Positions 45,399 to 63,660 of a stretch of DNA of 64,000 nucleotides are shown piece by piece. Origin of the DNA: Escherichia phage vb_EcoM_bov11CS3. The stretch lies in the sequence record MT884009.2; one strand, written 5' to 3'. A program made the translations under genes and the position numbers. The first letter of the stretch is position 1; the number at the start of each line of letters is the position of its first letter. The notes beneath the pieces were generated by a model. That model was given only the letters and a program-made list of their open reading frames with translations, searched no databases and was not told the origin of the DNA.

Positions 45399-47735
45399 TT
45401 ACCAAAGGTCGGTAGACATGAAGTTGATATCTTTATTGTTCTCCCACTCAAGTTTTGCATCAAATATTTTGTTAAACTCACCCTCATCTATTGAAATCGT
45501 GATTTTCCCATCACTGATCTCTAAAGGTAGCATTTCCATAGTTCTTAATTGAGAAGCAAAACCAGGGCCACCCGGCAACGGAAGAGTCCCGCCCGGTAAG
45601 GTGTCCAAAGGATTAACAAACCCGTTACCTCCCGATATGATATCTTTGCGAATCATATCGCTGATAGTATCCAGCTGCTGATTTCTTTCACTTAGTGGGT
45701 TGTAACGGTCATTAAATAATTCCCCGGCGCTTAGTATTGTACCGATAATGCCCAGCTTACCGAGCAGACCAACTTTGCCACCAGGTGTCTTGAGGCCACC
45801 TCCACCTTTTCCTGCCGGAGCTCCACCACCAGATCCTTCTGTAGTAGCGGCACCCGCTGCTCCAGCTGCACCCCTTAGAGAGTTAAGGAATTTAAAGGTT
45901 TTTACAAGCATAGATGCCATGACAAAACCTTTTGTTAGGGCGTTGACGACCAGCATGATGGCAGCAGCAAACCCTGCCCATTTAGCATAGCTAAAGGTGT
46001 CATGAAGCTCTTCAGAATATTCCTTCGTCTTGGCTGTTATGAACCCCCATTTAATCCCCCACTCAAGGAAAAACATGCGGATCTTGACTATAGTGTTGTT
46101 TAGTTCACCAACTACCCAGTTAAGGCCTCTCACAAACCCGCTAACAAAATCACCAGAGGCATCCCACACAAATTGCAGAGTCTCACCAGTGCGGATTAGT
46201 GTATAATAGAACTCTGTTAGTTCGTCAGACCAACGGGTGAACAGTTTCTGACGAGTCAGTTCGATAAAGGTTTTCAGTCTGTTTTCTGCCAGCACGTTAG
46301 ACTTCTGCATTCTTTCATAACCAGCTGCAGATGCCTCGTTCATGTACTTAGCCACATACTTCATGATCTTGGCTGTTTTAACCTCGCCTTTCTTCATCAT
46401 ATCCATGAACTGATCCATGGAGAGTTCAGAAAGACCAAAAGCCTCTTTGGTGGCCTTGATAAAAGGTTCGTATGCACCAGGCAATGCTTCAGCAAGCTGT
46501 TGCTTCAGTTCCTCGGACATTACTTGTCCCTTGCCAAGCATCTGTTGGATTGCCATAATACCGCGCTGGTATTTTACCTCATCGGCACCATAAGCAGCAG
46601 CATACTGGGAGTATGCAGAAAACAGCTCATGCACTTCCTGATTTGTCATCTGGTTTTTGGCGTTTACCGACATCTGGGCGTAACCTTGAAGACCAGATTT
46701 GAGATCAAAACCAAGACGCATAGCCTCTTGCTGGACAAACGCAACCTCACTGTTGGCTTTGTTTGGATCTCCAGTAACAGCAGTAAGAGCAGCACTTGCC
46801 CCCTCCATCATGTGACCGGATCTGTTAACCGCAGCAAATCCAGAAAAAGCTGTATACGCAGCTGTTGCATTAATAACAGATCTACGTAAGTCTCTCATGG
46901 CATCGCCTAGTGTAAGCGTTTGACTGGTGGCGCTTTTAAACCCAGACTGCAGCGCTGACAGGTGGGCGTTAAAGGTTGACTTCTTCATCTCCCCGCGAGC
47001 AAACCTGGACTCTAACTCTGAGTATCCTGGCAAGCTTCCACGGAATCCGGCCCCATACTTGGCAGAAAGTCTTATCGCGGAGTTGTAGAGGTGGGTTCTC
47101 CTTGCCTCACGATCCGACATAAGCCTATTATCCATACCAGCTTTACTGTCTCTTCTTAGCTGTCTATGATAACGATTCATAGCGGCTGTCTGAGCTTTCA
47201 CAAGGTTAGGGTCGGAAGCCACACCACCCATATTAGGGTTACCGGGGATATATTTGAAAGATTTGGCATTAGCCAAAACTCTTGCCTTAGGTGCCTTATA
47301 ACCACCGTAAGACACTGGTGCAGATTTGGCAGCCTTTTTGGCCTCTTTAGCTTGCTGCTGGTAGAACTTACGCATCCTAGCCATTTCTGGATTTTTAGCG
47401 GTAAGATTACCTACAGCTTGTTTACGTCTCGCATTCTCCCTACGTTCTATTGCAGCCCTTACTGCAGCCTCTTTCTTGGCCTGTGCTACGCTCTCTCTGT
47501 GCAGTTTAGCATTTGCCTGAGATTGCTGTCTGGCAACCCTCTGCATTGTCTGCTGGGTTTTAACAGCTACCGCCTGCCATCTACTCATGGGGTTGGCTGA
47601 GTTAAAATCCTCGCCCAGTTTCCTGAACTCCCTCCCAATACTGCGAATTTTCTCTACAGCTTTTTTGTAGGAGGAGTTCTCTATCTCAAAGCCAATCTTG
47701 TTGACTGTTGTGGCAACTATTTTGTTTGTAGCCAT
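45399..47735 (-). CDS. tail tape measure protein, 778 aa
   Basis: Ala/Gln-rich helical sequence, Gly-rich C-terminal region, located directly downstream of the chaperone frameshift pair. Confidence 0.7.
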   Translation of the reverse strand: MATNKIVATTVNKIGFEIENSSYKKAVEKIRSIGREFRKLGEDFNSANPMSRWQAVAVKTQQTMQRVARQQSQANAKLHRESVAQAKKEAAVRAAIERRENARRKQAVGNLTAKNPEMARMRKFYQQQAKEAKKAAKSAPVSYGGYKAPKARVLANAKSFKYIPGNPNMGGVASDPNLVKAQTAAMNRYHRQLRRDSKAGMDNRLMSDREARRTHLYNSAIRLSAKYGAGFRGSLPGYSELESRFARGEMKKSTFNAHLSALQSGFKSATSQTLTLGDAMRDLRRSVINATAAYTAFSGFAAVNRSGHMMEGASAALTAVTGDPNKANSEVAFVQQEAMRLGFDLKSGLQGYAQMSVNAKNQMTNQEVHELFSAYSQYAAAYGADEVKYQRGIMAIQQMLGKGQVMSEELKQQLAEALPGAYEPFIKATKEAFGLSELSMDQFMDMMKKGEVKTAKIMKYVAKYMNEASAAGYERMQKSNVLAENRLKTFIELTRQKLFTRWSDELTEFYYTLIRTGETLQFVWDASGDFVSGFVRGLNWVVGELNNTIVKIRMFFLEWGIKWGFITAKTKEYSEELHDTFSYAKWAGFAAAIMLVVNALTKGFVMASMLVKTFKFLNSLRGAAGAAGAATTEGSGGGAPAGKGGGGLKTPGGKVGLLGKLGIIGTILSAGELFNDRYNPLSERNQQLDTISDMIRKDIISGGNGFVNPLDTLPGGTLPLPGGPGFASQLRTMEMLPLEISDGKITISIDEGEFNKIFDAKLEWENNKDINFMSTDLW

Positions 47736-47789
47736 GGTTTCCTCATAATAAAAAGGGCCAGATCCCAGAAAAGGAATCCGGCCCTTAGA

Positions 47790-48155
47790 TTATCCTCTCC
47801 TGCGCTTAGCTTTCGCAGCAGCTGCGGCAGCCTTCTGCTCCCGCTCCATTTCCCTGTTTTGGACGGTATCTAGGAATTCTTCGATATCAAGATACTCACA
47901 GAGCTTCAGGAAATACGCCATATCTGCAAGATTTAGCGATTCAAAATTTTCCCCTTTGAAATTCTTGAGCACCCTGCACCAAAGAAAGTCGAACCAGTTG
48001 AGTGAACTGTTCTTGGCTGCCCACTCACTGGCCCTCACAACAACCTTGCTTATTCCTGCTCTTCCGGAGTCTGATCCAGGTTGTTCACCTGCTGAATCAT
48101 ACCCATCTGCTGTAACATCTCCAGAAGGCTTCCTAAACCGTCTTGTGTGAAAAAA
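47790..48155 (-). CDS. -1 frame extension of the tail assembly chaperone (frameshift product C-terminal part)
   Basis: The -1 frame is open from 48164 to the stop at 47790 and overlaps the last ~37 codons of the 157-aa gene; slippery heptamer at 48149-48155. Confidence 0.55.
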   Translation of the reverse strand, partial: FFHTRRFRKPSGDVTADGYDSAGEQPGSDSGRAGISKVVVRASEWAAKNSSLNWFDFLWCRVLKNFKGENFESLNLADMAYFLKLCEYLDIEEFLDTVQNREMEREQKAAAAAAKAKRRRG

Positions 48156-48523
48156 CAGCCGTAGTTAACCTCCAGAACCTTACCTGCCAGCTTAATCATC
48201 TCCAGCAGATGCCCCGCAAACACAACATCCGGGTTAAGCTTATCCACACCATCTACGGTAATATCTTCGAACAAGATTTTAAATAGCTCTTCAATAGAGT
48301 TATCATCAAGTTCTTGGAACAGGTAAGCCAGAGCAGTAGGAAGGACCTCTGCCATGTTCTGACCGCCTGAGATAATAGATCCACCGATAGCACCTAGCGG
48401 GACAGCCACAATCTTACCGATTTTAGGCATGTTTTTCATTGCTTTCATCGGTCCCCAATGGGTGATCACAAAGTTGTGCCCTGCTAAATCAACCTCTGTT
48501 GTAGGTCTAAAGTTTATAGCCAT
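48050..48523 (-). CDS. tail assembly chaperone, 157 aa (short form)
   Basis: Position between tube and tape measure genes; AAGGA before ATG 48523. Confidence 0.6.
   Translation of the reverse strand: MAINFRPTTEVDLAGHNFVITHWGPMKAMKNMPKIGKIVAVPLGAIGGSIISGGQNMAEVLPTALAYLFQELDDNSIEELFKILFEDITVDGVDKLNPDVVFAGHLLEMIKLAGKVLEVNYGCFFTQDGLGSLLEMLQQMGMIQQVNNLDQTPEEQE
48149..48155 (-). other. programmed -1 ribosomal frameshift slippery site T_TTT_TTC
   Basis: Sense GGC TGT TTT TTC ACA in the zero frame (YGCFFTQ); heptamer sits 9 nt after the -1 frame opens. Confidence 0.6.
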
Positions 48524-48566: not shown

Positions 48567-48595
48567 ATTTTACCATGATTATGGTGCATTGTCAA
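48567..48595 (-). promoter_or_regulatory. sigma70-like promoter overlapped by an inverted repeat
   Basis: Minus-strand TTGACA (rc 48590-48595), 17-nt spacer, TAAAAT (rc 48567-48572); TGCACCAT (48551-48558) and ATGGTGCA (48581-48588) form an 8-bp inverted repeat across the promoter. Confidence 0.45.
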
Positions 48596-48630: not shown

Positions 48631-48667
48631 AACCATAAAAGCAAAAAGCCCCACCCGAAGGTGAGGC
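48631..48667 (-). terminator. Rho-independent terminator after the tail tube gene
   Basis: GCCTCACC-TTCG-GGTGGGGC stem (one G-U pair) followed by TTTTTGCTTTTAT on the minus strand. Confidence 0.55.
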
Positions 48668-48685
48668 TTATGCTAAAGTGTGCCC

Positions 48686-49159
48686 TTAGATAATACCTGC
48701 AAGACCTGCGAGGCCAGTAAGAGCACCAGTGATGTTATCACGGTTGAGCCATGCATCCAGAATACCGATATCCCAGTCCAGCTGACCTACTTCGGTTCCG
48801 TAAGTCAGGTCAGGCTGTTTCTGGATCCAACCAATTGTGGAAATACCAGGACCCTGGCTACCTTCCAGCAGAACCGGGAAGAATACCAGGCCAGTAATCG
48901 ATGCCTGTTTCTGCCAGTCAGAAAGGTAAGCGTTCCATACAGAAGTGTTCTGCAAAGATACAGTCATAACACCAGATTGGTTACGAGACAGGGCAGCAGA
49001 CATTTCGCCATCAACACCAACATGAGGGTAGATGTTGTCTTCGTTTCTTGAAACAACGATCTTGGTGTCAGCAGCGAAGCCAGTGACACGCTGCTGCATC
49101 AGGTACAGTTTGACCTTTTTAGGGTCATACGCATAAGGAGTTAAAATTTGAGTTTCCAT
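48686..49159 (-). CDS. tail tube protein, 157 aa
   Basis: Directly downstream of the sheath gene; size typical. Confidence 0.6.
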   Translation of the reverse strand: METQILTPYAYDPKKVKLYLMQQRVTGFAADTKIVVSRNEDNIYPHVGVDGEMSAALSRNQSGVMTVSLQNTSVWNAYLSDWQKQASITGLVFFPVLLEGSQGPGISTIGWIQKQPDLTYGTEVGQLDWDIGILDAWLNRDNITGALTGLAGLAGII

Positions 49160-60967: not shown

Positions 60968-61044
60968 TGGTCTCCACGGAGTGATTCGAACACTCGACCT
61001 CCTGATCCCAAATCAGGCGCTCTACCAAGCTGAGCTACGCGGAG
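60968..61044 (-). tRNA. tRNA-Pro (anticodon TGG), 77 nt, CCA encoded
   Basis: Hand-folded: acceptor CTCCGCG/CGTGGAG, anticodon stem CCTGA/TCAGG with loop TTTGGGA, T-arm GAGTG-TTCGAAT-CACTC. Confidence 0.8.
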
Positions 61045-61055
61045 TATTTATTATT

Positions 61056-61130
61056 TGGTGGCCCTGGGTGGAATTGAACCACCGTCTGGCGATTATGAGT
61101 CGCTTGCTTGAACCTTCCAGCTACAGGGCC
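61056..61130 (-). tRNA. tRNA-Met (anticodon CAT), 75 nt, CCA encoded
   Basis: Acceptor GGCCCTG/CAGGGCC, anticodon loop CTCATAA, T-arm GGTGG-TTCAATT-CCACC; Met versus lysidine-Ile not distinguishable by eye. Confidence 0.7.
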
Positions 61131-61131
61131 T

Positions 61132-61207
61132 TGGTGCTGATGGCAGGACTTGAACCTACAACCTATTGATTACAAATCAATTGCACTACCGATTGTGCTA
61201 CATCAGC
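61132..61207 (-). tRNA. tRNA-Thr (anticodon TGT), 76 nt, CCA encoded
   Basis: Acceptor GCTGATG/CATCAGC, D-arm GCAC-AATCGGTA-GTGC, anticodon stem ATTGA/TCAAT with loop TTTGTAA, T-loop TTCAAGT. Confidence 0.8.
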
Positions 61208-61212
61208 AAAAA

Positions 61213-61311
61213 GGTGCTAGGTGATGGAATCGAACCACCTATGTATTCAACGACTACCTCGTCTATTTTCAGGATTAAAAATCCTCGCCCTTGCCAAAGG
61301 GCTTACCTAGC
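61213..61311 (-). tRNA. atypical tRNA-like gene, 99 nt, anticodon loop TTTTTAA (Lys-TTT-like), about 30-nt variable region
   Basis: Perfect 7-bp acceptor GCTAGGT/ACCTAGC, D-arm GCCC-TTTGGCAA-GGGC, T-arm GGTGG-TTCGATT-CCATC, but only a 4-bp anticodon stem (AGGA/TCCT) and an oversized variable region with internal hairpin ACGA-GGTAG-TCGT; 3' end CC-T, not CCA. Confidence 0.35.
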
Positions 61312-61409
61312 TCAGTATGTTGACCATGTTGCTAGTCGGCGATGACGACTGTAACATTTGATAATCCGGTTCTGCTTCCGGCTTTCGCTTAATTACAAGG
61401 TCAACAATG

Positions 61410-61500
61410 TGGCGGAGAGTAATGGAATCGAACCATCATCGAGTCATCCTCAACGGGACGGTTTTCAAGACCGCTTGAGCACCATTGCTCCCTACCCTCC
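61410..61500 (-). tRNA. tRNA-Ser (anticodon TGA), 91 nt, long variable arm, CCA encoded
   Basis: Acceptor GGAGGGT/ACTCTCC, anticodon arm GCGGT-CTTGAAA-ACCGT, T-loop TTCGATT. Confidence 0.75.
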
Positions 61501-61614
61501 TTTATAAATTATACTGATAATGACACTGATTTTCGAGCAGTTAGTGACTAGTATAAACGACGATAAATATCAATGCCATTATCTGCATTATTTATGCATC
61601 TAAAAATATAAATT

Positions 61615-61701
61615 TGGTGGGGAGTGGTGGAGTCGAACCACCCGAGTCGCAATGACAATAGATTTACAGTCTACACCGCTACCTCTACGGGATAACTCCC
61701 C
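61615..61701 (-). tRNA. tRNA-Tyr (anticodon GTA), 87 nt, long variable arm, CCA encoded
   Basis: Acceptor GGGGAGT/ACTCCCC, anticodon region GACTGTAAATCT, T-arm GGTGG-TTCGACT-CCACC. Confidence 0.75.
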
Positions 61702-61705
61702 AATT

Positions 61706-61780
61706 TGGCACCCCGTACTGGACTCGAACCAGTGTCAACGGCTTAGAAGGCCGCTGCTTTATCCACTAAGCTAACAGGGC
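61706..61780 (-). tRNA. tRNA-Arg (anticodon TCT), 75 nt, CCA encoded
   Basis: Acceptor GCCCTGT/ACGGGGT (two G-U pairs), D-arm GCTT-AGTGGATA-AAGC, anticodon arm GCGGC-CTTCTAA-GCCGT, T-arm ACTGG-TTCGAGT-CCAGT. Confidence 0.7.
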
Positions 61781-63092: not shown

Positions 63093-63660
63093 AGTAAATT
63101 TTATTTAACATTACCTCATCTTTTGCAGAAAGAATACCGAGATATGCATCACCGAATCTACCTGCAACAACCTCTGCATGATACATCACTTCGTTAATAT
63201 CGTCAAGAGTGATAACTGGATGACCGTATCTCTCTGAGTATTGTCTCAGAGTGCGATGTAGAGAGTCATCATCATAGGCAGACTTTTTAATATCACAAAC
63301 ACGACGAATAGCCTTGATGTCGAAAAAACCTGTGCGATACCACCCAAGAAAAAGGTTTCGTGCAGTGTCAACATCTACATTGATACCATCAAGAACCTTA
63401 TCTACAAGATAGCTGTCATCCTTTGGACCAGCGTCCTTAGTGCGAATGTAGTTGCCATCTTTTCCAGGCGACATCTCCTTCTCATCCCCAACCTGCATGC
63501 CATCATTTGGCGGTGTTAGCCACTTATCCGGATGCTTACGATCACGAGCGTTAGAATGATTACGCTGGAAACCGGGCTTCCACTTGAAAGTTTTCTCCAT
63601 CTGTTCTTCATTCTGATAACGTTTTGCAATCTTTTCACGGTCATCTTTGCGTGAACCCAT
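63082..63660 (-). CDS. hypothetical protein, 192 aa
   Basis: ORF track; charged N-terminal region. Confidence 0.45.
   Translation of the reverse strand: MGSRKDDREKIAKRYQNEEQMEKTFKWKPGFQRNHSNARDRKHPDKWLTPPNDGMQVGDEKEMSPGKDGNYIRTKDAGPKDDSYLVDKVLDGINVDVDTARNLFLGWYRTGFFDIKAIRRVCDIKKSAYDDDSLHRTLRQYSERYGHPVITLDDINEVMYHAEVVAGRFGDAYLGILSAKDEVMLNKIYYER

Follow-up and report, generated by a model that had tools for sequence, protein, structure and literature searches.

Does the tail assembly chaperone gene of this rV5-like Escherichia phage encode one protein or two? An earlier note, made from the letters of the window (the whole 64,000-nucleotide stretch of DNA analysed here), had read a T_TTT_TTC heptamer in this gene as the site of a programmed −1 frameshift. 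Comparative evidence, comprising synonymous constraint on the heptamer, homology in the −1 frame and the pattern of substitutions, strongly supports that reading. Judged from sequence comparison, it is very probable that a short and a long chaperone are made from the one gene by a tandem −1 slip of the ribosome on T_TTT_TTC.

Tail-gene order and transcription signals

The 1.2-kb region that carries the chaperone locus matches that of Escherichia phages vb_EcoM_bov22_2 and DrSchubert at 100% identity; 115 rV5-like phage records (genus Vequintavirus) share at least 95% identity with it. On the minus strand, the genes run in the order sheath (50546–49170), tube, 157-amino-acid chaperone, −1 open reading frame (ORF) and tape measure, with the following features.

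48686–49159 (−): tail tube gene, 157 amino acids; Pfam KPP10_Orf10 (7e-9) and phrog_280
48646–48669 (−): terminator-like hairpin on the tube side of the chaperone unit
48567–48595 (−): σ70-type promoter-like site before the chaperone gene; TTGACA, 17-nucleotide spacer, TAAAAT, with an upstream TG
48050–48523 (−): short chaperone gene (G-like, TAC-N), 157 amino acids, 17.2 kDa; zero frame, ATG at 48523, TAA at 48052–48050
47753–47786 (−): terminator-like hairpin and T-run, beginning 4 nucleotides past the −1-frame stop
45399–47735 (−): tape measure gene, 778 amino acids; Pfam TMP_3 (1.5e-18) and phrog_5255 (E = 0)

The immediate upstream neighbour of the chaperone gene is thus the tube gene, whose product several records annotate as tail tube protein. 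The earlier note had named the 157-amino-acid protein a tail assembly chaperone encoded upstream of the tape measure gene, and profile searches agree: the protein matches Pfam PF21822 (Phage_TAC_15) over residues 15–129 at 2.3e-23, scoring 83.6 bits where the cut-off is 22, it is assigned to the 'tail assembly chaperone' family phrog_3840 at 1e-68, and its gene lies between those for the tube and the tape measure protein. The tape measure protein is presumed to be the client of the chaperone.

A strong promoter-like site belongs to the chaperone unit; it matches the consensus at 11 of 12 positions, and its counterpart is annotated as P51 in the rV5 RefSeq record. The unit is flanked by two terminator-like hairpins. 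The annotations of rV5 and Murica include the same features, the hairpin at 47753–47786 being given there as a Rho-independent terminator. Because the unit is bracketed in this way, the tape measure gene sits right behind a terminator.

A slippery heptamer where two frames overlap

Zero-frame codons 122–126 (48160–48146, minus strand) read GGC TGT TTT TTC ACA. The heptamer that they contain and the reading frames around it are laid out as follows.

48165–48167 (−): TAA stop in the −1 frame, which is open from 48164, 9 nucleotides ahead of the heptamer
48149–48155 (−): slippery heptamer T_TTT_TTC in codons TGT TTT TTC (C123 F124 F125), X_XXY_YYZ register
47790–48149 (−): −1-frame extension (T-like), 119 codons plus stop, ending at TAA 47792–47790
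48050–48148 (−): dual-coded overlap; the zero frame encodes a 32-residue acidic tail, the −1 frame an R-F-R motif and a Gly/Ser/Asp-rich linker

Deriving these features anew from the sequence gave the same codons, heptamer, −1 opening 9 nucleotides upstream, end at 47790 and fusion of about 244 amino acids that the earlier note had described. The product of a tandem slip would have 125 + 119 = 244 amino acids and a mass of 27.1 kDa, compared with 17.2 kDa for the short form. The chaperone gene and the −1 ORF overlap by 115 nucleotides, and T_TTT_TTC is the only canonical heptamer in this overlap. The sequence U_UU.U_UU.C is shift-prone in E. coli experiments and belongs to the efficient H_HH.U_UU.Y class, which is used by IS elements (PMC4066793).

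Heptamers of this kind are common enough to raise the question of coincidence, in which case the heptamer and the long −1 ORF would have no function and the gap between the chaperone and tape measure genes would be non-coding. The long minus-strand ORFs of the window contain 45 in-frame X_XXY_YYZ sequences in 15,973 codons, or about 0.4 per gene of chaperone size. What sets the chaperone heptamer apart is the frame behind it. The window ORFs of at least 150 amino acids contain 34 in-frame heptamers in which Y is A or T, and the chaperone heptamer is the sole one of these trailed by a long −1 ORF: its −1 run is 360 nucleotides and no other exceeds 96 nucleotides, most of the others closing within 6–54 nucleotides, and it alone has a −1 frame that passes the stop of its own gene. 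This per-heptamer control was used in place of a window-wide statistic of −1 extension past the stop, which was dropped as confounded by ordinary downstream genes with overlaps of 4–31 nucleotides.

Conservation of the heptamer through codon choice

The site was compared with its counterparts in 13 diverged GenBank phages (chaperone identity 27–54%), drawn from Vequintavirinae, Stephanstirmvirinae, and Aeromonas, Rheinheimera and Pseudomonas phages, and in 34 loci from IMG/VR. One of the two seed patterns for the IMG/VR set held the Phe-Phe pair, and thus residue conservation in that set is biased whereas codon choice is not.

Of the 13 GenBank relatives, 11 (Vequintavirinae, Stephanstirmvirinae and Aeromonas phage TS9) have T_TTT_TTC at the homologous codon, as do 33 of the 34 IMG/VR loci; the remaining locus has T_TTT_TTT. 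When redundancy is removed, 39 of 40 contexts, down to 27% identity, carry a T-run heptamer (T_TTT_TTC in 38, T_TTT_TTT in one). The fortieth, from Rheinheimera phage Barba1A, shows another canonical heptamer, G_GGA_AAG, at the homologous spot. In Pseudomonas phage Amme-3 (around 1500–1520 of the fetched locus) the aligned position reads TCG GTT TTT ACT; the resulting G_GTT_TTT is not a canonical site for tandem slippage, yet a homologous −1 ORF follows it. This combination points to slippage of a single tRNA on T_TTT in the lineage of Amme-3, in line with the GTTTTT motif described in PMC12846349.

The surrounding frames are equally regular. In every relative, the −1 frame opens shortly ahead of the site, extends 140–296 nucleotides beyond the chaperone stop and ends just before the tape measure gene, and the +1 frame is shut within 7–127 nucleotides. 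The earlier note had regarded the locus as the conserved chaperone arrangement of tailed phages, and relatives down to 27% identity indeed keep the heptamer or an alternative heptamer, its register and the long −1 ORF.

Codon choice at the site shows synonymous constraint. The residue that precedes the Phe pair varies (Cys, Ser or Pro), and in all 39 T-run contexts its codon ends in T (TGT, TCT, AGT or CCT). Phe124 is encoded by TTT in 39 of 39 of these contexts and Phe125 by TTC in 38 of 39; the window's own usage is 50:50 for TTT versus TTC and 50:50 for TGT versus TGC. Synonymous codon identity, computed over 426 pairs whose nucleotide identity is below 80%, is distributed along the gene as follows.

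Codons 1–115: 0.39
Seven codons before the site: 0.57
Three heptamer codons: 0.94
Nine-codon windows centred on codons 126–128: 0.83–0.86
Codons 135–140: about 0.4

Conservation of the heptamer in relatives is thus far beyond what chance would give.

The same comparison bears on a mechanism in which RNA polymerase, rather than the ribosome, slips: a base would be added or dropped in the T6 run, and some mRNAs would then join both parts in a single frame. With six T in a row, the site is a homopolymer, and homopolymer heptamers are under-represented in genes, partly owing to transcriptional slippage (review, PMC4066793). Six is short, however, relative to the runs of about nine A or T for which bacterial cases are described (PMC5009743). 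The exact X_XXY_YYZ register is also held, with Z = C in 38 of 39 contexts, and register matters for the re-pairing of tRNAs, not for a polymerase; moreover, Barba1A has its G_GGA_AAG at the same place without a long run. For these reasons, we consider transcriptional slippage very unlikely.

The −1 frame evolves as a protein from the slip site onward

In blastp comparisons, the −1 product of the window shows homology (3e-40 to 3e-10) to its counterparts in 12 diverged phages, and several of these alignments begin 1–5 residues after the shift. Past the chaperone stop, substitutions gather on the third positions of the −1 frame, with counts of 18/15/57 against one relative (L019) and 24/21/63 against another (L037). 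Inside the overlap, the substitution pattern instead tracks the codon positions of the zero frame.

Selection on the −1 frame is nevertheless visible within the overlap as a [R/K]-[F/Y]-[R/W] motif, 4–6 codons past the heptamer, that occurs in 30 of 31 contexts and lies far upstream of any candidate start codon. The Arg codons of this motif vary (CGG, AGG, CGC and AGA), and the zero-frame residues encoded by the same bases change (Asp/Gly/Ser/Arg/Thr, Phe/Leu/Ile and Gly/Ala/Asp). By these comparisons, the −1 ORF is under protein-level selection from four codons past the heptamer. The ORF is protein-coding, as third-position bias and homology attest, and has no conserved start codon; its matches among PHROGs are solely to families of unknown function.

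These results return to the question of coincidence. Third-position bias, protein homology that reaches across families, the R-F-R motif and synonymous constraint on a heptamer that relatives conserve are all at odds with a non-coding gap and a functionless site, and comparison of the sequences leaves this explanation effectively refuted, with next to no probability.

A profile of the extra domain was searched against 1.84 billion representative proteins and gave 29 matches, 28 of which are ORFs of 42–102 amino acids. The first residues called for these 28 ORFs fall anywhere from profile position 1 to position 47, often inside conserved helices. The 29th match (E = 1e-3), an unrelated 479-amino-acid repetitive protein, was set aside. 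None of the 29 matches is a natural in-frame fusion of chaperone and extension, and a word-index search for such fusions returned three short ORFs.

Annotation of the downstream frame as a separate gene

Joined ORFs are absent from all 18 public records inspected, which include one at 100% identity, three close Vequintavirus records (the rV5 RefSeq record among them) and 13 diverged relatives, and from the feature names of the top 25 matches. The annotation of Murica, like that of most GenBank records, gives an 82-amino-acid protein from GTG 48038. Records for 241Ecol014PP and Hena1 have a gap at the −1 ORF, and those of diverged relatives have fragments of 38–89 amino acids with differing starts. 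The rV5 RefSeq record (NC_011041.1, 47514–47882, equal to window 47790–48158) places there a 122-amino-acid ORF50 that starts with CTG directly before TTT TTT and overlaps ORF51 by 109 nucleotides; its annotators evidently saw the long ORF and not the frameshift.

Taken at face value, these annotations describe two separate genes, the downstream one initiating at GTG 48038 (82 amino acids) or CTG 48158 (122 amino acids) with no frameshift involved. In favour of the GTG start, a ribosome binding site and start are annotated there in Murica, a weak AAGG lies 5 nucleotides ahead of it and some relatives have Met near its position. This Met alternates with Ile and Leu, however, as a hydrophobic helix position would, and conservation of the −1 peptide already begins at the R-F-R motif, well before the GTG, and persists through synonymous changes of Arg codons. 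The CTG start has in its favour the RefSeq annotation of the 122-amino-acid ORF50, but CTG is no normal start and the position is occupied by CTG, ATG, AAG, CCC, ATC or CTC across relatives. More generally, no start is conserved, given that called starts range over profile positions 1–47 and often cut conserved helices; some records annotate no ORF in the −1 region at all; and synonymous constraint on the heptamer would be left unexplained. We therefore hold two independent genes to be very unlikely, although minor independent initiation at GTG 48038 may occur, given the weak AAGG.

Ribosomal slippage on T_TTT_TTC, as the favoured reading, makes this an ordinary phage arrangement that has been left unannotated in the public records of the rV5-like group. 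None of the papers searched describes a chaperone frameshift in rV5-like phages, and the words frameshift, chaperone and tape measure are absent from the paper on the rV5 genome and proteome; a virion proteome would not be expected to contain chaperones. The chaperone family is carried by about 490 phage genomes in the collection, to which the correction of annotation probably applies as well, and the main value of the finding lies in annotation.

Candidate stimulators of the shift

One candidate 5′ stimulator is present in the window.

48169–48173 (−): internal Shine–Dalgarno (SD)-like GGAGG, 13 nucleotides upstream of the heptamer

The spacing agrees with the 9–14 nucleotides over which an SD sequence stimulates −1 shifts (review, PMC5009743). 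A GGAGG, GGAG or GAGG sequence 13–14 nucleotides upstream is found in 27 of 40 non-redundant relatives and is absent in 13. The element overlaps conserved Leu-Glu-Val codons, and because the motif coincides with these codons its role is only a candidate one.

On the 3′ side, the earlier note had proposed a search for a downstream stimulatory structure. That search, run by folding, z-scores, alifold and Rfam, turned up nothing conserved. Downstream of the heptamer, the fold of the window sequence has z = −1.69 and its main stem begins about 20 nucleotides away, and no stem-loop or pseudoknot of the dnaX or IS911 type occurs 5–9 nucleotides 3′ of the heptamer. Folding each of 40 contexts separately gave a mean z of −0.47, two alifold runs with different sets of relatives gave a consensus of about −5 kcal/mol essentially without covariation, and an Rfam scan of the region at a permissive E-value gave no match. 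A 9-bp long-range stem in the window, CUUCUGGAG...CUCCGGAAG, was rejected as it is not kept in relatives. Since no conserved 3′ structure was found, the efficiency of the slip may be low.

The highest synonymous constraint of the whole gene is found in the block of about eight codons past the heptamer (...CGGTTTCGG..., in which Gly129 is always GGT). One conceivable explanation is a structure-free slip with an unusual stimulator, either this block or the invariant nascent N-Y-G-x-F-F sequence, acting through an mRNA–ribosome or nascent-chain effect. We think this unlikely, though it would carry consequences if true: the constraint on the block would then go beyond a side effect of double coding, and a structure-free frameshift cassette would be common to hundreds of large myoviruses.

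Predicted products and proposed mechanism

Most ribosomes would translate the chaperone gene to its own stop and yield the 157-amino-acid product as the short chaperone, the presumed counterpart of lambda gpG. A minority would slip one base back when codons 124 (UUU, P site) and 125 (UUC, A site) are each paired with tRNA-Phe, and the two tRNAs would re-pair on UUU UUU. Reading in the −1 frame would then resume with CAC ACA AGA CGG UUU AGG and continue to the UAA at 47792–47790. The shift would be driven by the intrinsically shift-prone heptamer, and the GGAGG 13 nucleotides upstream may also pair with 16S rRNA.

The resulting 244-amino-acid fusion would be the counterpart of gpGT. It would consist of chaperone residues 1–125 without the acidic 32-residue tail, and would gain the R-F-R motif, a disordered Gly/Ser/Asp linker of about 30 residues and a four-helix domain of about 85 residues with a basic C terminus. 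Nearly the whole chaperone domain would be retained, namely residues 15–125 of the Pfam match at 15–129. The 32-residue acidic tail (pI 4.05) is private to the short form and is under purifying selection in the zero frame.

An AlphaFold2 model of the −1 part (mean pLDDT 75.5) predicts residues 1–30 to be disordered (pLDDT below 50) and residues 35–118 to form four helices, with pLDDT of 88–96 over residues 51–110, followed by a basic end. In a structure search with the model of the extra domain, the sole BFVD match was the domain itself and the PDB gave none, and sequence searches of the PDB were negative for the chaperone and the −1 part alike. The tryptic peptide that spans the junction of the predicted fusion is VLEVNYGCFFHTR (fusion residues 116–128).

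By analogy with lambda, the tape measure protein would be coated by many short and few long copies of the chaperone. The extra domain of the long form would recruit tube protein and thereby start polymerisation, and neither form would stay in the virion.

Comparison with known frameshift systems

In P2, a contractile-tailed phage, the gpE/gpE+E′ chaperone pair is encoded between the tube and tape measure genes and is produced by slippage on a T-run. The likeness to the locus studied here lies in the T-run slip, the gene position and the contractile tail.

The best-known frameshift in tail assembly genes of double-stranded DNA phages is that of lambda gpG/gpGT (Levin 1993; Xu, Hendrix & Duda 2004, as relayed in the review PMC5009743). 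Both systems have two overlapping ORFs between the major tail or tube gene and the tape measure gene, both have a long form, here a predicted one, composed of the chaperone plus an extra C-terminal domain, and neither requires strong RNA structure. The window carries the sequence traits of the G/GT type, namely gene order, chaperone identity, an in-register heptamer in the overlap, conservation and a coding −1 ORF that lacks a start. The differences are that the heptamer is T_TTT_TTC here and G_GGA_AAG in lambda; that the present phage is large (about 136 kb) and contractile-tailed, with a chaperone of another Pfam family (Phage_TAC_15); that its short form has a private tail of 32 residues under selective constraint; and that its extra domain has no detectable relative in sequence or fold among solved structures.

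A closer parallel is the −1 frameshift proposed in December 2025 for the chaperone locus of Vandenendeviridae (Pakpunavirus Adele) and Andersonviridae (PMC12846349), an analysis that covers these two families and not Vequintavirinae. The tail modules are related and share the same gene order, the −1 frame is unbroken in all genomes, and annotations routinely mislabel the downstream ORF as a hypothetical protein (PMC12846349). A T-rich site also stands at the aligned position, where Amme-3 has N-Y-G-S-V-F-T and the present phage N-Y-G-C-F-F-T. In contrast to the canonical T_TTT_TTC of Vequintavirinae and Stephanstirmvirinae, the site in those families is an invariant GTTTTT (G_GTT_TTT), which is non-canonical for a tandem slip. 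With the present analysis, the late-2025 proposal for these two related families is extended to Vequintavirinae and Stephanstirmvirinae, and the slip site is seen to have changed between G_GTT_TTT, T_TTT_TTC and G_GGA_AAG at a constant codon position. It leaves the understanding of tail assembly and of recoding unchanged.

E. coli dnaX resembles the locus in combining a canonical heptamer with an internal SD-like element 9–14 nucleotides upstream (13 nucleotides here). Unlike the phage site, dnaX needs a strong 3′ stem-loop and reaches an efficiency of about 50%; the search at the phage site detected nothing of this kind, and some relatives of the rV5-like phage lack the SD-like element.

Additional observations

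In Barba1A, a reverse-strand gene annotated as a 'putative DNA binding protein' (1820–2458 of the fetched locus) lies between the −1 ORF and the tape measure gene, and this insertion breaks an adjacency that is otherwise universal.

Two further heptamers in the window were recorded. A second in-frame T_TTT_TTC is located at 63328 (−) in ORF 63660–63082; its −1 frame is shut after 30 nucleotides and it shows no sign of use. An in-frame A_AAA_AAG, the most efficient slippery heptamer in E. coli, is located at 2047 (−), 57 nucleotides ahead of the stop of ORF 2484–1984 (166 amino acids). Its −1 frame runs for 54 nucleotides and ends 4 nucleotides before the normal stop, such that a slip would swap the last 18 or so residues. 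This heptamer is probably due to chance.

A cluster of seven tRNA genes lies at window positions 60968–61780 (Pro, Met, Thr, unknown, Ser, Tyr and Arg), and no tRNA-Phe gene was found in the window. The member without an assigned identity, at 61213–61311 (−), is a 99-nucleotide ARAGORN call with a four-base anticodon (atcc) that scores 35.5 bits against the Rfam tRNA model, for which the cut-off is 29. Candidate interpretations are a pseudo-tRNA, an insertion within a tRNA, or an anticodon loop of 8 nucleotides.

Finally, 18 GenBank records named 'Campylobacter phage' (host Campylobacter jejuni), including MG065635, MG065652–MG065655, MG065666 and MG065676, share about 99% identity with the rV5-like query. 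Several of them are unannotated or partial, and the set looks like a case of mislabelling or contamination.
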